This document shows, one piece after another, positions 7,330-30,442 of a stretch of DNA of 64,000 nucleotides. Position 1 is the first letter of the stretch; every line of letters starts with the position of its first letter. The stretch is taken from positions 95,824 through 159,823 of the forward strand of contig CAVZJB010000002.1 of assembly GCA_963775425.1 (NCBI GenBank), in the 5' to 3' direction. This DNA is from an uncultured delta proteobacterium. GTDB lineage: Bacteria; Myxococcota; UBA727; VGSZ01. The notes below the pieces were generated by a model. It searched no databases. It saw only the letters and a program-made list of their open reading frames with translations, and was not told where the DNA came from. The translations under genes and the position numbers were made by a program.

Positions 7330-10300
7330 ATGCGCACGTTCCAATCCGCCGCCCGCTCCTCCGTCGCCGCCGCCGCGCTCGCGCTCCTCGCCGGCGCGTC
7401 CGCGGCGAGGGCCGCGGACCTCGACACGACCGGCGTGCCCGACGCGCTCAAGCCGTGGATCCCGTGGGTGCTCCACGGCAGCGAGCGCGATCGCTGCCCC
7501 GAGCGCACCGACGGCGCGCGCGTGTGCGAGAGCCCCGGGCGCCTCGAGCTCGTCGTCGAAAAGACCGGCGGCTCCTTCACCCAGTCCTGGCGCGTCGACG
7601 CCAAGGCGCTCGTGCACCTGCCCGGCGGTCAGAAGCACTGGCCCCTCGACGTCGACGTCGACGGCCACCCCGCGGTCGTCGTCGAGCAGGGCGGCGTCCC
7701 CACGGTGGAGCTGCCGCAGGGCGAGCACGCCGTGCGCGGGCGCTTCTCGTGGGACGCCGAGCCCGAGTCCGTCGTCATCCCCGCGGCCACCGCGGCGGTG
7801 CGCCTCGTCGTCGACGGCAAGGACGTCCCCTTCGTCGACCGCGGCGACGCAGGCGACCGCGTGTGGCTCAAGCGCGACAGCGGCGGCGAGGCCCGCGAGG
7901 AGGACCGCCTCGACGTCACCGTGTTCCGCAAGGTCACCGACGGCGTACCGCTGCTCGTCGAGACCCAGGTGCTCCTCGAGGTGAGCGGCAAGGGCCGCGA
8001 GGTGGTGCTGCCCGGCGTCCTCCTCGACGGCTTCGAGCCGCTCTCGCTGGACAGCGAGCTGCCCGCGCGCCTCGACGGCGCCGCGCTCAAGGTGCAGGTG
8101 CGCCCCGGCCGCCACCTCGTCGACGTCGTCGCCCGCCGCGCCGTCGACGACCGCGCGCTCGTCGCGCCCGCGAAGATGAACGGCGACGAGGAGGTCTGGG
8201 TGTTCCAGGCCGACCACGCCGTGCGCGTCGCCAACGTCACCGGCGTCCCGTCCATCGTCGCCGAGCAGACCCGCCTGCCCGCCGCGTGGCGCGCGCTCCC
8301 CGCGTACCGCGTGCTCCCCGGCGAGAAGGTCACCCTCGAGCAGCAGCGCCGCGGCGACGAGAGCCCGCCGCCGTCGCAGCTCGTGCTGCGGCGCACGCTC
8401 TGGCTCGACTTCGACGGCGGCGGCTACACCGTCCACGACGAGCTCGGCGGGCGCTTCACCGGCGACCGCCTCGTGATGGGCAAGGGCACCACCCTCGGCC
8501 GCGCCTCCACCGGCGACGGCCCCGGCGACGCGTTCATCACCACCACGGCGAGCAAGGGGGAGAGCGGCGTCGAGGTGCGCTCGCCGAACCTGCGCGTGAG
8601 CGCCGACAGCCGCATCGAGGGCGGCGGCTCGTTCCCGGCGGTGTCGTGGGCCCACGACTTCCAGAGCGTCACCGAGCTGTTGCACCTGCCGCCCGGCTTT
8701 CGCCTGTTGCACGCCTCGGGCGTCGACGAGGTCGACAGCACCTGGGTGCGCTCGTGGACGCTGTTCGAGCTGTTCCTCGTCGTCGTCATCACGCTGGCCA
8801 TGGCGCGGCTGTGGGGGCCGCTCGTCGGCGGCGCGTCGCTCGTCACGCTGGTGTTGACCTTCCAGGAGCCGGGCGCGCCGCGCTGGCTGTGGGTGGCGGT
8901 GGTGGCGCTGGCGGCGCTGCACAAGGTGTTGCCGCCGTCGTGGGAGACGCGGGCGGTGGCGCGCGTCCTGAAGCTCCTGCGCCTCGGCGTGGCCATCACG
9001 GTGGCGTGCGTGGCGGTGGCGTTCGCGGTGCAGGAGGTGCGCGTGGGCATGTACCCCGTGCTCGCGCAGGAGTACCGCGCCGTCGGCGACGGCAGCACCG
9101 GCTATGGTGACGTCGGCGGCGCCGGCAACGGCATCCTCACGCTCACGCCGCAGGCGGAGCCGCCGCCTCCGCCGCCTCCGCCGCCTCCGCCGCCGAACCA
9201 GATGAACCAGATGAACGCGCCGGCGATGCCCAAGGGCGGCGCGGTCGACAACGACGGCAAGGACAACGCGTCGCCCGTCGAGGACGAGCTGCAGATCCAG
9301 GGCGATGGCGGCGGCGGCGGCGGCGGCCTGCGCGCGGGCTGGCTCTCGAGCGCCGACGACACGCGCGGCTCGTCGGCGTACGCGCAGAAGGTCATCCTGA
9401 AGAAGCAGAAGCTGCAGCAGATCGACCCGAACGCGGTGGTGCAGACGGGGCCGGGCCTGCCGCAGTGGGACTTCCAGTCGGTGCACCTGCGCTTCACCGG
9501 GCCCGTCACCAAGGACCAGCGCATCTCGCTCTTGCTCCTCGGCCCGCGCGTGAACCTCGCGCTCGCGTTCCTGCGCGTGTTGCTCGTGGCGTTCCTCGTC
9601 GTCGTCGCGTTCGGCTTCCCCGGCCGGAGCTGGCCCGGCGCCATCCTCAGGGCGTTTCGCGGCAAGGGCGCGCTGTTCGGCGCCGGCGGCGCGGCGCTCC
9701 TCGTCGCTGCGCTCGGCAGCGCGCCGGCGCACGCGCAGGGGGCGCAAGCGACGCCGCCCGCCGCCGTCCTCACGGACCTCAAGGCGCGGCTCCTCGAGGC
9801 GCCCACCTGCGCGCCCGGCTGCGGCTCCATCGCCCGCGTCGCGCTCGAGGCCGACGACGTCCGGCTGCGGCTGCGCGCCGAGGTGCACGCGCAAGCCGCC
9901 GTGGTGGTGCCGCTGCCGGGCGGGGACAAGCAGTGGAGCGCGGCCACCGTCGTCGTCGACGGCAGGCCCGCCGCGGGCGTGTCGCGCGACCAGGGCGCTT
10001 TGTGGGTGGTGCTGTCGCCCGGCCGCCACGACGTCGTCCTCGAGGGGCCGCTGCCCGGGCGCGACACCGTGCAGCTCGCGTTTCCCTCTCGTGCCGCACC
10101 ACGCGACGTTCTCGTCGTCGACGTGGACCCTCGACGGCGTCCACGAAGACGGCGTCCCGGACGCCAACCTTCAGCTCTCCCGCCGCGCGAAGGCGCCCGT
10201 GGGGGGCGCCGCGGCGGACCTCGCGGGGGAGGCGCCCGTGTTGCCGCCGTTCCTCTCCGTGGAGCGCTCGCTGCTCCTCGGGCTCTCCTACGAGGTGGAG

Positions 10301-24679: not shown

Positions 24680-26386
24680 TCAGGGGATGACGCCGTCGTA
24701 GGCGCGGTGGGCGCGTACGGTGCCGATCGGCGTGGTCGCGGGCAGGGCGGCGGTGTCGACCGCGGCGCCGTCCTTGTCGAGGGCCAACAGCACGAAGCGC
24801 ACGACGCCGCCGTCGTGGCTCGAGGCCGCGACACCCTGGAGCGCGAGCGGGGCGTCGGCACAGACGCGCGAGATGGGTTGGAAGTCGACGCCGTCGACGC
24901 TGCCTTCGGCGGTGGCGCACAGGCCGCCGTCCTCGACGACCAGGCGGCCCCAGGGCACGCTCTCCTCGTCGACGGTGTTCGGGGGCGCGAGGTCCGCGCG
25001 CGTCACCGTCGTCCCGCCGCCCGCCGTCGTGCGGCTCTGTGCGCGCAAGGGCTCGTTGTCCGCCGGGCGGCACACGGCGACGTACGGCGCGCCCGCCCCC
25101 GTCGACGCGCGCGCCATCAGGCAGACCTTGGCGAACTCCTGCACGTGGCTGTTCTCCGTCGACAACAGCGCCGTCCATGTGGCGGCGAGGGTCCCGTCGG
25201 CGAGGTCGTCGTGGAGGAACACGAAGTCGTCGCTCGTGCCCTCGATGTCGCCGGAGTCGACCTCCACCGCGAGCGCGCGCAGGTCCTCCGCGCGGCCGGC
25301 GCAGTCGGCGGCGGTGAAGCACGAAAACGGAAAGCCGTTCGCCTGGTGCGTCGTCGCGAACAGGTCCCGGTTCAGGTTGACCTTGTCCGTCGCGAGGATG
25401 GCGATGTCGTCGGCGAGGACGCCGTCCCACGTGCCCGCGTCGTTGACGCCGAACGCGCGCGCGACGAGGCCGGCGGCGTGCACGCCGCTCGCGAGCGCGC
25501 GGTCGCCGGCGTCGACGTTCAGGAACACCACGCCCGGCCGCGCGTCGTACGCGGCCAGGCCGCACGTGGTGTCGAGCTGCGGGGCGACGAACGCGTCGCG
25601 GGAGGCGCCGTCGTCGTCGCCGACGTAGGCGTCGAGGGCGCCGCCGAGGCCGCAGGCGCGGCCGCCGGTGAGGACGGCGAGGAACTTCCCGCGCAGCTCG
25701 ACGTCGGTGGGCCAGCCGCACGACGTCGTCACCGCGTCCCTCAAGGACGTCGCCGCCGGGCAGCGCTCGAGGAGCGCGCGCGCCGGGAACAGCGCGTCGC
25801 CGAGCCCGCCCTCGAGCGCGGCGTCGAGGTCGTCGGTGCCGTGGCCGTCGGCGGCCGTGAAGGCGCTCTTGACGTCGACGAAGATGGTGATCGGCTCGTG
25901 GTTCGGCGCCGCGCGATGAAACGCCATCAGGTTGCCGAGGCAGTCCGACAGGCGGTGGCAGGTGGTCCCCGTGTCGTTGTTGTCGTGGAACACGAACCAC
26001 TCGCCCGGCGTCGTCGTGAAGCCGCTCTTGTCCCGGTGGATGTCGAGCTCCAGGCTCCTGACGTCGTGGTAGCCGAGCATGTCGACCAGCGCCTCGTCGC
26101 GCTGGAACGCGTTGTGCGCCGACTTCTGGATGAGCGCGTCGTAGGGCACCCCAAGGTCACCTTCACCTTCGCCCTCGCCTTCACCTTCGCCCTCGCCTTC
26201 ACCCTCGCCCTCGCCCTCGCCCTCGCCCTCGCCCTCGCCTTCACCTTCGCCTTCGCCCTCGCCCTCGCCTTCGCCTTCGCCCTCGCCGGCGGCGGGCGTG
26301 CCGGGGCACCCGGCCGCGGTGACGACGGCGACGGCGAGGGGGAAGGCCAGGGGGACGGCGAGCACCAGGGCGAGCGACGCGCGCAT
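24680..26386 (-). CDS. Lipoprotein: (GE)n linker + Ca2+-dependent PI-PLC-like domain + C-terminal beta domain
   Basis: AAGC lipobox and a long (GE)n tract. PLC-X-like motifs QKSAHNAF, VRSLELDIH, WFVFH, TTCHRLSDCL, HEPITIFVDVK and WPTDVELRGKF. Confidence 0.8.
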   Translation of the reverse strand: MRASLALVLAVPLAFPLAVAVVTAAGCPGTPAAGEGEGEGEGEGEGEGEGEGEGEGEGEGEGEGEGEGEGEGEGEGDLGVPYDALIQKSAHNAFQRDEALVDMLGYHDVRSLELDIHRDKSGFTTTPGEWFVFHDNNDTGTTCHRLSDCLGNLMAFHRAAPNHEPITIFVDVKSAFTAADGHGTDDLDAALEGGLGDALFPARALLERCPAATSLRDAVTTSCGWPTDVELRGKFLAVLTGGRACGLGGALDAYVGDDDGASRDAFVAPQLDTTCGLAAYDARPGVVFLNVDAGDRALASGVHAAGLVARAFGVNDAGTWDGVLADDIAILATDKVNLNRDLFATTHQANGFPFSCFTAADCAGRAEDLRALAVEVDSGDIEGTSDDFVFLHDDLADGTLAATWTALLSTENSHVQEFAKVCLMARASTGAGAPYVAVCRPADNEPLRAQSRTTAGGGTTVTRADLAPPNTVDEESVPWGRLVVEDGGLCATAEGSVDGVDFQPISRVCADAPLALQGVAASSHDGGVVRFVLLALDKDGAAVDTAALPATTPIGTVRAHRAYDGVIP

Positions 26387-26495: not shown

Positions 26496-27059
26496 CTACA
26501 GCGACTCGTAGTGGGCGCGGGCGACGGGCTGGGCCTGCAGCCAGCGCAGGGCGTAGTCGACGAACGCCTCGGCGAGGGTCTCGGCTTCCCCGTGCTCGAC
26601 GGCGCCGCTCTTCACCAGGCGCTCGAAGGTGGCCACGCGCTCGGTGACCTCGTAGAGGCGGCGGCGGTCGAGGGGGCCGGAGGTGTTGTCGTTGAACCAG
26701 AGGATGAGCTGCTCGACCATGTCGAGCGACCACGGCCTCGTCGACAGCGGCGCGTACTGCGGGTGCTCCGCGAGCCATTGGTAGCCGCGCGCGATGAAGG
26801 TGCGCGCCAGGGGCATGGCGTCTTCCTCGACGCCGCCGCCCTCGACGCGGTGGACGAAGCGCAGGAAGTCGCGGACGTGTTTGCGGATGCCGTCGTCGTC
26901 GTAGGGCGGCACGCGGTCGATCTCGTGGAACGCGAGCACGGCGCGGCCGACCATGGCCTTGGTCCAACGCCCGTCGACCGGGCCGTTCGGCGCGCGCAGG
27001 ACGGGTGACACCCGCTCCGCCGCCGCGACCGCCCTCGACTTTGCCGCGTGCTTGGCCAT
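26496..27059 (-). CDS. Hypothetical protein made of two tandem homologous helical units
   Basis: The pattern W...MV...(V/I)L.F...P.D...R.V..G.VE..A..LA..F(I/V)....WL...P occurs twice. It starts 16 nt downstream of the TxKYPSD protein gene. Confidence 0.7.
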   Translation of the reverse strand: MAKHAAKSRAVAAAERVSPVLRAPNGPVDGRWTKAMVGRAVLAFHEIDRVPPYDDDGIRKHVRDFLRFVHRVEGGGVEEDAMPLARTFIARGYQWLAEHPQYAPLSTRPWSLDMVEQLILWFNDNTSGPLDRRRLYEVTERVATFERLVKSGAVEHGEAETLAEAFVDYALRWLQAQPVARAHYESL

Positions 27060-27075
27060 GGGGAGTTGTACCGCC

Positions 27076-28176
27076 TCAGCGGAGCTTGAGGGGCCCGATC
27101 GACTCGGTGATCGCGCCCGGCCCGCCTGTGCGCTCGACGTAGAATTCGCGCACACGGTTGGGATCGACGTCGGGCGCGTTCACCGTGAGCGGACCGAGGG
27201 GGATGAAGCCCGTGTACGCCCACCCGGACGTGGCGTCCTGCCCGAGGCTCAGCCGGGCGAAGCGCTCGCCACGGTGGGCTTCGATGACGCTGCCCTTCTT
27301 CCACGACAGCGAGCCGTCGTTCGCGCGCCCGAAGGTCCTGCGGATGGCACCCGCATGCGCGGCAGACACGTGGTGCTCCTTGCGCCCGCCGGTGACCGCA
27401 CCGCCGCCGTCCTCGTTGTCGGACGGGTACTTCATCGAGGTCATGGTGTGACCGGGCGGCGACGACGACGTCCCCGGGTCTTCCTCGTCGGACGGGTACT
27501 TGATGGTGAGCCGCGGGAACATGCCGAGCGCGTGTGCGGCGCCGGCGATCTCCGGCAGCGGCGCCGCCAACCACGCGCGCAGCTCCTCGAGCTCGACGCG
27601 CTTGAGCGGCATCGTCCTGGCGTGCGCGATGAGCCGCTCGAGCTCGGCCGACGCGTCGTGCAGCTCGCGCTCGGCGGCGCGCAGCTCGCGGGTCGCGGAC
27701 TTCGCGGCGTGGTCCGCGAGGCGAATGACCTGGGCCTTGGCGTGGTGCACGTCGGCGGCGGCGGCGTCCAGCCACGCGTGCACCTGCGCGAGGCCCCCGC
27801 GCACCGCGCGCGATCCTCCTCCGCGGACGAGCTGCTGCAGCCGCGCCCGGGCGCGCTTGAGCTTGTCGCCGGCGTCGGCGGCCTCCTCGCGTGCGGCCAG
27901 CCGGGCCTCGAGGGCGCGGGTGCCGGCGGACGATTTGCGCCCGGCGCCCTTGACGAAATCGACCAGGACCTGGCGCGCCTTCTCCGAGAGGTGGGTGGCG
28001 TCCTTGCCGTCGAGGAAGCGCTGGACGATGGCGGCGCCGTCGTCGGCCTCGCCGAGCTCCTTCAGGGCCTTTTCGGCTTCGGTCTTGGTGATGGTCGCCC
28101 GGCCCTGGGAGCGCGTCCGCCGCGCGGCCTTGAGGGAGGTGGCGAAGGCGGTCTCGGGGGCGACGGGGCGGGGCAT
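27076..28176 (-). CDS. Hypothetical protein carrying two microviridin/graspetide-like core motifs
   Basis: TIKYPSDEED at 27478-27507 and TSMKYPSDNED at 27409-27441 lie between a coiled-coil region and a ~100-aa C-terminal domain ending FYVERTGGPGAITESIGPLKLR. Confidence 0.75.
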   Translation of the reverse strand: MPRPVAPETAFATSLKAARRTRSQGRATITKTEAEKALKELGEADDGAAIVQRFLDGKDATHLSEKARQVLVDFVKGAGRKSSAGTRALEARLAAREEAADAGDKLKRARARLQQLVRGGGSRAVRGGLAQVHAWLDAAAADVHHAKAQVIRLADHAAKSATRELRAAERELHDASAELERLIAHARTMPLKRVELEELRAWLAAPLPEIAGAAHALGMFPRLTIKYPSDEEDPGTSSSPPGHTMTSMKYPSDNEDGGGAVTGGRKEHHVSAAHAGAIRRTFGRANDGSLSWKKGSVIEAHRGERFARLSLGQDATSGWAYTGFIPLGPLTVNAPDVDPNRVREFYVERTGGPGAITESIGPLKLR

Positions 28177-28305
28177 CACGGGTTGTTCTAGCGCGCGCGC
28201 GGGGTGTTTGGCGCCACTGGACAAACACCGGGGCGCGCGGGATCTTTCGCGTTCCTAGGGGGCCGCAGGGCCCGTACACGCGCTCGCGTAGTTGGGAAAG
28301 AAGAC

Positions 28306-28695: not shown

Positions 28696-29832
<1,137 letters not shown>

Positions 29833-29956
29833 GTGACGAGCATAGCTCCGGGGCAACGGCGATGGATGGCCCATCCTCCCAACGTCCGTGGGGTAACGTG
29901 CGCGCGAGGCCTCCCGCAGGGAAGGCGCGCGAGAGAGAGAGACGGCCGGAGGGCAC

Positions 29957-30442
29957 GTGGACGAGCGGGAGATGATCATTCACAAGGACACCGTCAGCGT
30001 GGAGCTGTGCTCCACGCACGGCGCGCAGTCCCGCGGCGAGGTGTTCCTGCGGCCGCCCCAGGAGGGGACCGACCGCGGCGAGCGGCTGCTCGACGTCCTG
30101 GCCGAGCGCTGGTTCGTCCCGCTCAAGACACCGGAGCGGCTCACCTTCGTGGCAACACGCCACATCGCGTGGGCGCGCATCGACCTGCTCGCGGCCATCG
30201 ACGAGCTCGATCCCGAGGCCGAGGACGACGAGAGCAGTTGCACCGCCACCGTCGTCGTCGAGCTCAACTTCGGCGCCAAGCTCGAGGGCGTCGTGCGCTA
30301 CGCGCTGCCGCACCCGATGCGGCGGCTGGGCGACTACCTCGAGCGGCTGCCGTCGTTCTTCCCGCTCAGGACGGACGACTGGCTTTACCTGGTGAGCTCC
30401 ACCTGCGTCTCGTCGGTGACGCCGCTCGAGGAGAAACGCTGA
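29957..30442 (+). CDS. Hypothetical protein, translationally coupled to pilT
   Basis: GGAGG RBS, and the stop overlaps the pilT ATG (TGATG). It contains two similar halves (RLLDVL...FVPL / RLGDYL...FFPL). Confidence 0.75.
   Translation: MDEREMIIHKDTVSVELCSTHGAQSRGEVFLRPPQEGTDRGERLLDVLAERWFVPLKTPERLTFVATRHIAWARIDLLAAIDELDPEAEDDESSCTATVVVELNFGAKLEGVVRYALPHPMRRLGDYLERLPSFFPLRTDDWLYLVSSTCVSSVTPLEEKR

Follow-up and report, generated by a model that had tools for sequence, protein, structure and literature searches.

Core-bearing gene in the window

The subject of this study is a gene in a 64,000-nucleotide stretch of contig C2 (GenBank CAVZJB010000002.1; the whole stretch is called the window below) in the genome assembly of an uncultured delta proteobacterium (GCA_963775425.1, labelled G000 here; 8.26 Mb, 18 contigs, 94.55% complete), which encodes a protein with two microviridin-type core sequences in its middle and is referred to as the scaffold gene. 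The G+C content of the window is 72%. The open reading frame (ORF) spans 27076..28224 on the minus strand according to the ORF list, and its translation is 382 amino acids (aa) long if a TTG start is used and 366 aa long if the ATG at 28176 is used; the latter is the likely product, because 12 homologues start at the equivalent of this ATG in the alignment. The 366-aa protein scored over the cut-offs of PF12559 (Inhibitor_I10; 25.1 bits versus a cut-off of 21; profile positions 50-63 of 63) and NF033738 (28.6 bits versus 26; profile positions 33-45 of 46), in both cases with the core part of the profile only, and a genome scan with NF033738 gave no match over the cut-off in 14 control genomes. 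These scores and the translation bear out the first-pass annotation, made from the letters of the window alone, in which a 366-aa protein with TIKYPSDEED and (T)SMKYPSDNED had been recognized. The features of the locus are listed in Table 1.

Table 1. Features of the core-bearing locus, in positions of the window
Feature	Position	Strand	Basis
Core-bearing scaffold gene, 366 aa (stop codon at 27076-27078)	27076..28176	-	ORF translation; start shared with 12 homologues; PF12559 and NF033738 over cut-off
N-terminal helical domain, residues 1-218	27523..28176	-	AlphaFold2 model; alignment
Predicted disordered linker, residues 220-264, with both cores and the Pro/Ser/Gly spacer	27385..27519	-	pLDDT < 50
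Core 1, TIKYPSDEED, residues 224-233	27478..27507	-	Sequence
Core 2, T-SMKYPSDNED, residues 246-256 (T246 precedes SMKYPSDNED, 247-256)	27409..27441	-	Sequence
C-terminal alpha/beta domain, residues 272-366 (...FYVERTGG...GP)	27079..27363	-	Stand-alone model; hhalign
Downstream neighbour ORF, 219 aa as listed, start probably later, near 27060	26496..27155	-	Position; conserved beside the scaffold gene

The pattern [TS]x[KR]xPS[DE]x[DE][DE] was matched twice in the six frames of the assembly (16.5 million positions), both times in the scaffold ORF, and the search for further core proteins proposed in the first-pass annotation thus returned no others in this genome. A chance origin of the cores was ruled out, since the six-frame residue frequencies predict 0.0012 occurrences of the strict 10-residue motif per genome, yet two copies lie 23 residues apart. 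All six cross-link residues are present in both cores, with Ser in place of Thr at position 1 of core 2, and the two cores have an identical stretch of 15 nucleotides (nt) in common (aagtacccgtccgac). If the pattern described for microviridin (PMC7823629; here and below, statements from the literature refer to the available portions of the cited papers) is carried over, core 1 would be closed by the T224-D230 ester, the S229-E232 ester and the K226-D233 amide, and core 2 by the S247-D253 ester, the S252-E255 ester and the K249-D256 amide.

The structure of the scaffold protein was modelled with AlphaFold2 from an alignment of 13 rows. In terms of the predicted local distance difference test (pLDDT), the helical N-terminal region (residues 7-218) was mostly high, residues 220-264 were below 50, and the compact domain at the C-terminus (the C-domain, residues 272-366) was about 90; the earlier placement of the cores and their Pro/Ser/Gly spacer between a helical N-terminal region and a compact C-terminal domain therefore agrees with the model. 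In the N-terminal domain (N-domain), W202-L203 is invariant and P206 nearly so in the alignment, and the helix of residues 206-218, with the consensus PxPELxxAxxxLG, is confined to the core-bearing members. When modelled alone, the C-domain (pLDDT 90.9) consisted of one helix and a four-stranded sheet. It belongs to no Pfam or NCBIfam family, and its model had no match at E <= 0.001 in the Foldseek search against PDB; for the model of the whole protein, the same search returned generic helical bundles only and again no match at E <= 0.001. SH3b-like names obtained for the C-domain from the ESM Atlas were not adopted (the best score, 0.88, was under the lead level of 0.9 and was backed by nothing else).

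The PFF leader motif was absent from the scaffold ORF, as had been noted before: the regular expression for the leader found nothing and the profile matches are limited to the core part, so that no PFFARFL-type leader stands N-terminal to the cores in the same polypeptide. Instead of a short precursor beside its ATP-grasp ligases, the gene encodes 366 aa with two domains predicted to be folded, and the MvdD-like ligase pair of the genome lies on contig C3, not C2. The scaffold protein was thus not classed as an ordinary microviridin precursor, as it has no leader in cis and is not a short peptide adjoining ligases. Judging from the motifs and the profile matches, its core chemistry and the ligases described below are nevertheless of the microviridin kind.

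Cores in homologous proteins

A search of 5.8 billion proteins gave nine hits, namely the protein itself, seven full-length homologues (P0003-P0009; 35-43% identical to the scaffold protein, with two to five cores each) and a long precursor of genome G013. The scaffold proteins of genomes G005, G008 and G010 carry 5, 2 and 3 cores, respectively, and a metagenome scan added three members with 5, 5 and 6 cores; the core-bearing scaffold genes thus number 14, the gene in the window included, with two to six cores each. Since the same architecture occurs in these 14 genes from different assemblies and metagenomes, an assembly chimera or a broken gene was ruled out. In the first 11 core-bearing proteins (the three later metagenome members are outside this tally), the residues K, P, S, D, E and D are kept in all 36 cores, position 1 is T in 33 of the 36 and S in the other three, and positions 2, 4 and 8 are variable. 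The protease specificity of microviridin is set by its position 5 (PMC7823629), the counterpart of core position 2.

A metagenome member, L087 (4291..5664, plus strand), has six cores that all read T-x-R-[YF]-P-S-D-N-[ED]-D, with Arg for Lys as in marinostatin; these cores could form two esters only, because Arg replaces the Lys that forms the lactam.

Ligases and leaders at other loci

A scan of the source genome with TIGR04184 identified three places, none of them on contig C2, and the earlier statement that the 64 kb contain no ATP-grasp gene therefore holds for MvdD-type ligases, the sole type searched. The genome search for MvdC/MvdD-family ligases that the first-pass annotation had suggested was productive: two MvdD-like ligase genes were found in tandem (G000:C3:366332-367270 and 367321-368277; E 8.5e-98 and 1.4e-56 with TIGR04184). 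The best relatives of the upstream ligase in PDB are 5ig8 (E 3.5e-59), which we take to be MdnB, and then 7m4s, the AMdnB chain (E 8.5e-51), and that of the downstream ligase is 5ig9 (E 2.9e-69). The entry 5ig9 is MdnC, the lactone-forming enzyme (PMC12848669, PMC7823629). The two ligases are hereafter called MdnB-like and MdnC-like.

The genes of the C3 operon lie on one strand in the order TldD-TldE-MdnB-like-MdnC-like, with tiny gaps between TldD and TldE and between TldE and the MdnB-like gene, and with the stop codon of the MdnB-like gene overlapping the start of the MdnC-like gene. No small precursor ORF was found in the operon and no core-like motif within 20 kb around it. PF19289 and PF01523 are present in both TldD and TldE, and PF19290 and the sequence HEAIGH in TldD. 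The genome has three TldD/TldE-like pairs (C3:368331-371131, C16:233702-236397 and C16:959302-961649), of which the ligase operon includes the C3 pair alone; the two C16 pairs are approximately 30% identical to it. The C3 TldD shares 75% identity with the TldD of genome G017 and 68% with that of G013, and in both genomes TldD/E lie a few kilobases from ligases. The MdnC-like ligases of G000, G005 (contig C62), G008, G010, G012, G013 and G017, from the putatively split systems and those with long precursors, form one clade (support 98/97), which leaves out the ligase beside a canonical short precursor on contig C78 of G005.

Two observations concern these loci. In G017 (L044, 5601..9149, plus strand) and G013 (L045, 11757..15245, plus strand), a gene for approximately 1160-1180 aa, which looks like a hydantoinase/oxoprolinase, lies on the opposite strand between TldE and the ligases or the precursor. 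A third and weak MvdD-like match in the source genome (G000:C14:35366-35908, plus strand; model positions 120-315; E 9.4e-9) may represent an ATP-grasp enzyme of a different kind.

The leader motif was found on contig C8, in an ORF of 168 aa (G000:C8:194656-195159, minus strand) that has a helical N-terminal part and PFFARYL near its C-terminus and ends with ...GRPLPFFARYLVKQDGLRRQR-stop (shorter excerpt, ...PLPFFARYLVKQDGLRRQR). This leader-only gene surfaced as a weak match of NF033738 (E 0.43; profile positions 1-11) and then by reading of the frame; no core follows it on C8 in any frame. Its homologues in G005, G008 and G010 are 125-143 aa long and end with ...PFFARFLEHQKR-stop, and two metagenome proteins share the architecture and end alike. 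The residues P, F, F, A, R and L and the following Q are invariant in the alignment of these six rows. Among 1.84 billion representative proteins, 22 were hit in a profile search (E <= 0.001), of which 19, some of them the clusters of the query sequences themselves, are 113-172 aa long with the leader motif 4-7 residues from the C-terminus (PFLARYL in one) and no core; the other three are P0033 (174 aa; N-domain, leader and one core), P0027 (N-terminal half only) and P0034 (unrelated, ParB-like). The leader-only family was defined accordingly by a length of about 110-170 aa, a conserved helical N-domain, a C-terminal PFFAR[FY]L with 4-13 residues between it and the stop codon, and the lack of a core. 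Neither Pfam nor NCBIfam contains a family that matches it.

The N-domain of the leader-only proteins matches the N-domains of fused long precursors in G013, G017 and G056 (E 4.5e-7 to 2.9e-6 per genome). In these precursors (L045, G013:C8 10246..11718, minus strand; L099/L084, G056:C256; L057, G017:C211), a helical N-domain of approximately 250 aa is followed by PFFARFL and then by cores, 10 in G013, 16 in G056 (by regular expression) and at least three in G017, the locus of which is partly masked; the 10-core precursor of G013 lies directly upstream of two ligases. From this homology, the leader-only proteins are taken to be a real family, derived from or ancestral to the leader part of such long precursors. 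The N-domain of the scaffold protein has no profile homology to that of the leader-only family, and the idea that a long precursor was split into the leader-only and the scaffold protein was ruled out with hhalign (leader-only versus scaffold family; probability 0.2%). No synteny around the leader-only gene is common to the lineages g1 and g4.

The 10-16 cores of the fused precursors may be compared with the "up to five" given for class II precursors in a review (PMC7823629). The four-core precursor of G012, with PFFERFL, was not matched by the leader-only N-domain profile; it has both Arg and Lys cores.

A precursor domain behind the cores

A profile scan with a four-row alignment of the C-domain, in which one genome per species was used, gave 25 loci. 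Six of them (L089-L094) are from metagenome-assembled genomes of Archangiaceae, Archangium gephyra, Myxococcaceae and Myxococcales, and encode proteins of 318-441 aa (open-frame length; the L092 protein is cut off by the contig end) that consist of a short N-terminal tail, the alpha/beta domain, PFF[SN]RFL approximately 30 residues further on, and then 7-13 cores. MdnB-like and MdnC-like ligases lie 44-89 nt downstream of the precursor in L090, L091, L093 and L094, and in L089 the first ligase begins before the contig end. When the profile of the scaffold C-domain was aligned by hhalign with the alpha/beta domain of the L090 precursor, the probability was 99.6% (E 9.4e-24; 98 columns). By this homology, the compact C-terminal domain is a module of cis-encoded microviridin precursors, in which it stands ahead of the leader; the order thus differs from that in the scaffold protein, where the domain stands behind the cores. 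The scaffold protein and the L089-L094 precursors also have the core consensus and Gly-rich spacers in common, and the ligases of the latter are 49-55% identical to the MdnC-like enzyme of the source genome; unlike them, the scaffold protein has no leader motif and its presumed ligases are unlinked. Uncharacterized conserved "microviridin" clusters have been mentioned for Archangium, Cystobacter and Sorangium (PMC12224551).

Coreless paralogues of approximately 294-311 aa with another N-terminal part and no Pfam family share the alpha/beta domain (L018, which is G000:C11:106062-106334, and L021, L022, L026 and L014), so that the role of the domain is not limited to precursors.

Three points go beyond the first-pass annotation, as judged by homology and gene order: a leader carried on a separate protein, the identity of the C-domain as a precursor domain, and a TldD/TldE pair co-operonic with the ligases.

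Phylogenetic distribution

In the 41 genomes of the relatives set, several of which are only 76-89% complete, the core-bearing scaffold gene was found in four (G000, G005, G008 and G010), and the leader-only gene in the same four (by profile, four of the 11 genomes of the family and four of the 401 of the phylum have it). MvdD-like ligases (E <= 1e-20) were found in 10 of the 41, including all four core-bearing genomes. The comparison of homologues that had been suggested at the outset therefore shows that core number varies from two to six and that core-bearing scaffolds occur only in genomes with ligases; neither of the grounds for abandoning the proposal that the first-pass annotation had named here, non-conservation of the cross-link residues and absence of graspetide ligases from the genomes, was encountered. 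In G003, G007 and G009, which belong to the genus of G005, G008 and G010, no core-bearing scaffold gene, leader-only gene or ligase was found (a weak C-domain match only in G009). Near the scaffold genes of the homologues (contigs of 6-36 kb), no ligase, TldD/E or leader-only gene was found, within 6-9.4 kb for G005, G008 and G010 and within flanks of up to 10 kb on either side for the metagenome members.

In the sister genus g3 (G002, G004 and G006), the scaffold gene is syntenic, with the shared order of lipoprotein, RRM protein, scaffold and 187-aa ORF, and its product has the same N- and C-domains and no cores. The cassette is cleanly missing as a whole; the gap opens right behind the conserved WLxxP and closes where the C-domain begins. 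These three genomes have no leader-only gene and one ligase each, which form a separate, fully supported clade; NF033738 had no match genome-wide in them, and no core was found within approximately 9 kb of the ligase (L049, G002:C256; L051, G004:C7; L052, G006:C14).

On contig C78 of G005 (L046, about 7787..7960, plus strand), a canonical short precursor with PFFARFL and two cores lies directly upstream of its own ligase pair. This genome thus holds a canonical system beside the parts of a putatively split one (an orphan ligase pair, L047, C62; a leader-only gene; a five-core scaffold gene), so that nature offers the two for direct comparison.

Interpretation

The first-pass annotation had offered two branches, a protein-embedded core modified in trans and an unmodified motif. 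Comparative genomics, in each of the computational checks suggested there, favours the first branch, and the cross-linking itself is what we infer. We consider it probable, short of confident, that the scaffold protein is a rearranged, naturally split substrate of microviridin type, cross-linked in trans, the parts of which are encoded at three unlinked loci. Only tentatively do we propose the more specific arrangement in which the stand-alone leader would license the ligases in trans, the cages would be set in the inter-domain linker of a folded protein, and the former pre-leader domain would serve as a follower. If true, this would be the first natural trans-acting leader of a peptide that is synthesized ribosomally and modified post-translationally (RiPP) and the first case of protein-embedded microviridin cages, and would offer a natural toolkit for cage-grafting.

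In known systems, PFFARFL is the recognition and allosteric helix for MdnB and MdnC, neither of which modifies the core without the leader; MdnC forms the T1-D7 lactone and then the S6-E9 lactone, and MdnB then forms the K3-E/D10 lactam (PMC7823629). In engineered graspetides, a leader supplied in trans and a leader moved to the follower position both function (PMC13003496). By analogy, the leader-only protein would use its PFFARYL helix to bind and activate the ligases in trans in the cytoplasm, like the attached leader of canonical systems, the flexible linker would present the two cores, and the alpha/beta domain may dock on the follower side. The MdnC-like enzyme would form two lactones per core and the MdnB-like enzyme the lactam, which would give two tricyclic cages at T224/K226/S229/D230/E232/D233 and S247/K249/S252/D253/E255/D256. 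Since the specificity position is occupied by Ile in one cage and Met in the other, inhibition of serine proteases of subtilisin or elastase type is predicted. If the cages are later released, the co-operonic TldD/E would cut back unstructured peptide as far as the cage, as the "pencil sharpener" TldD/E is halted by modified residues (PMC10885120).

Between release of the cages by later proteolysis and their retention on the protein, we lean slightly to release. The co-operonic TldD/E, the Gly-rich spacers as in the 10-16-core precursors and the fast change of core number between homologues favour release; the two flanking domains predicted to be folded, the coreless orthologues and the acceptance by TldD/E of unfolded peptides only favour retention.

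The following points weigh against the split-substrate reading. All of its functional steps are inferred. The three loci (C2, C3 and C8) are unlinked, so that the link between them is co-occurrence, and this is suggestive rather than statistical, because the genomes are few and related and represent effectively the lineages g1 and g4; the pattern perhaps reflects two or three evolutionary events and not 41 independent observations. The presence of ligases in G005 is not explained by the scaffold gene alone, since the canonical precursor there has its own ligase pair. The coreless orthologues show, as far as their conserved synteny and domains tell, a scaffold with a life of its own, and in the scaffold tree calculated without the cassette columns the coreless and core-bearing members stand on the two sides of one branch, which fits gain as well as loss. 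For the leader-only gene within g4, pairwise ratios of nonsynonymous to synonymous substitutions (dN/dS; NG86) were 0.30-0.45, and those of the scaffold gene were 0.50-0.95, which is weak evidence of constraint, as dS (0.5-1.1) is near saturation and codon bias is strong. Both C3 ligases are below the TIGR04184 equivalog cut-off (328.7 and 193.4 versus 475 bits), which was reached in none of the 41 relatives genomes. The assembly reaches 94.55% completeness, and the portion that it lacks could contain a canonical precursor. Release by TldD/E would need a prior cut of another kind, because these enzymes accept unfolded peptides only (PMC10885120) and the N-domain is predicted to be folded.

A further difficulty concerns leader recognition. 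The MdnC-like C3 ligase (L006, 9294..10277, minus strand) has His-His at the positions of Glu191/Asp192, the leader-contacting residues of MdnC, and the MdnC-like ligases of G005:C62, G008:C1107 and G010:C442 have Ala-Ala in these columns; canonical leader binding by the C3 enzyme is doubtful, since the acidic leader contacts are missing. The MdnB-like C3 enzyme has Gly-Asp in the columns aligned to Glu191/Asp192 of MdnC, and the ligases beside fused or canonical precursors keep Asp/Glu at the second of the two columns. Activation may instead proceed through the MdnB-like partner or a ligase complex, and the absence of the acidic pair in all four split systems could be a mark of changed leader recognition. 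A prediction of the three-chain complex of the MdnC-like ligase, the scaffold protein and the leader-only protein gave neither support nor counter-evidence.

The same ligase feature is one of the observations behind the strongest alternative, in which the C3 ligases do cross-link the cores, and recognize the scaffold protein through its alpha/beta follower domain, the helix 206-218 or both, with the leader-only protein as a regulator, decoy or ligase chaperone. The scaffold C-domain has its homologue in the pre-leader domain of the cis precursors, the helix PxPELxxAxxxLG is found in core-bearing members only, the acidic residues in contact with the leader arginine are missing from the four MdnC-like ligases of the split systems, and follower-side leaders function in engineered graspetides (PMC13003496). 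We nevertheless regard this explanation as unlikely: P-F-F-A-R-x-L is invariant in the six aligned leader-only proteins and is near the C-terminus in 19 of the 22 hits, the only role documented for this motif is the binding and activation of ligases (PMC7823629), the leader-only gene co-occurs exactly with the core-bearing scaffold genes, and the cis precursors with the same alpha/beta domain still need an adjacent PFFxRFL.

A modification-free explanation, in which the cores are linear protease-binding or interaction loops on an unrelated protein and the C3 ligases serve another substrate, would account for ligases that are on another contig and under the equivalog cut-off, for the independent function that the coreless orthologues imply, and for the sister-genus genomes with an orphan ligase and no recognizable core, and it can call on the incomplete assembly. 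It seems quite improbable to us in view of the cage pattern in the cores, with the six cross-link positions kept in 36 of 36 (T or S at position 1) and positions 2, 4 and 8 free, of the joint presence or absence of cores, leader-only gene and ligase pair, of the lack of any other microviridin-type core in the six frames of the assembly, and of microviridin enzymes as the best solved relatives of the ligases. That the locus is a decaying remnant or an artefact, a precursor fused by chance or misassembly to a neighbour with the leader-only ORF as the pseudogenized other half, is hardly credible, for although the split architecture resembles a broken long precursor and dN/dS is not low, the same layout is seen in 14 independent genes, no homology links the leader-only N-domain with the scaffold protein, so that they are not two halves of one gene, the stop position is conserved in 19 of the 22 leader-only hits, and stops or frameshifts are seen in no part.

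Relation to known graspetides

With the class II multi-core precursors, for example AMdnA of Anabaena PCC 7120 (PMC7823629, PMC5934393), the proposed split system shares tandem TxKxPSDx(D/E)(D/E) cores, short Gly-rich spacers, ligases of MdnB/MdnC type and the expectation of a serine protease inhibitor as the product. Class II precursors are described there as one peptide with one N-terminal PFFARFL, up to five cores and adjacent ligases, whereas in the scaffold protein the cores are in mid-protein between two domains predicted to be folded, no leader is in cis, and the parts are at three unlinked loci. The engineered graspetides (PMC13003496), with the leader in trans, fused to the enzyme or moved to the follower position, likewise indicate that a leader can activate the ligase without covalent attachment ahead of the core, but they are laboratory constructs in which the leader in trans is an in-vitro method, while the separation here is genomic and conserved and involves a protein family.

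One microviridin-type cluster of Myxococcota has been characterized (PMC12848669). Its MdnC-like ligase (myxomiditide pathway, MyxD2) also lacks Glu191/Asp192, and is inactive alone and needs partner ligases; unlike the scaffold protein, the myx precursors are short, have PFFxRFx in cis together with a KxxEKxxE motif, and share a cluster with four ligases. The corallotide system CorA/MirC (PMC13097080) resembles the present one in a protein-sized substrate (about 22 kDa), repeated modified motifs and a ligase that may need an extra protein, and differs in the KxxxD isopeptide, the TIGR04187-type ligase and the single cluster; MirC is a SurA-like chaperone and not a carrier of a leader. For TldD/TldE, the parallel is microcin B17, the RiPP precursor of which is trimmed by an M103 pair until modified residues block it; according to the same paper (PMC10885120), TldD/E are usually outside RiPP clusters, whereas here one of three paralogous pairs is co-operonic with ligases; that paper draws no connection between TldD and microviridins. 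Makarova et al. (PMC8939145) noticed large proteins with matches to core motifs at a great distance from ATP-grasp genes, and excluded them. In the literature searched (most subscription journals and supplements are outside its range), neither a natural stand-alone leader nor microviridin cores inside a multi-domain protein nor TldD/E in a microviridin operon was found.

Genome mining for RiPPs, with RODEO or antiSMASH for example, presupposes that leader and core share one peptide, a short precursor encoded beside its enzymes. If the split system is active, leaders can be separate genes, graspetide ligases can act on folded proteins in vivo, and one substrate class has been systematically filtered out by such mining. 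The system would then also provide a natural precedent and parts for putting protease-inhibiting cages in the loops of arbitrary proteins with the leader in trans, and would suggest that TldD/E are a protease dedicated to the maturation of microviridin-type products. To our knowledge, it was long uncertain which protease removes the leader of microviridins. A bifunctional protease has been reported for class I microviridins (PMC13039773).

Neighbouring genes

The downstream neighbour ORF, which belongs to no Pfam family, was found by tblastn with 48-56% identity beside the coreless scaffold genes of G002, G004 and G006; it is associated with the system by its position. Two predicted lipoprotein-like ORFs flank the locus (24680..26386 and 28696..29979, both on the minus strand), each with long Gly-Glu runs, (GE)n, after an N-terminal hydrophobic segment, and the latter is conserved beside the coreless scaffold orthologues.

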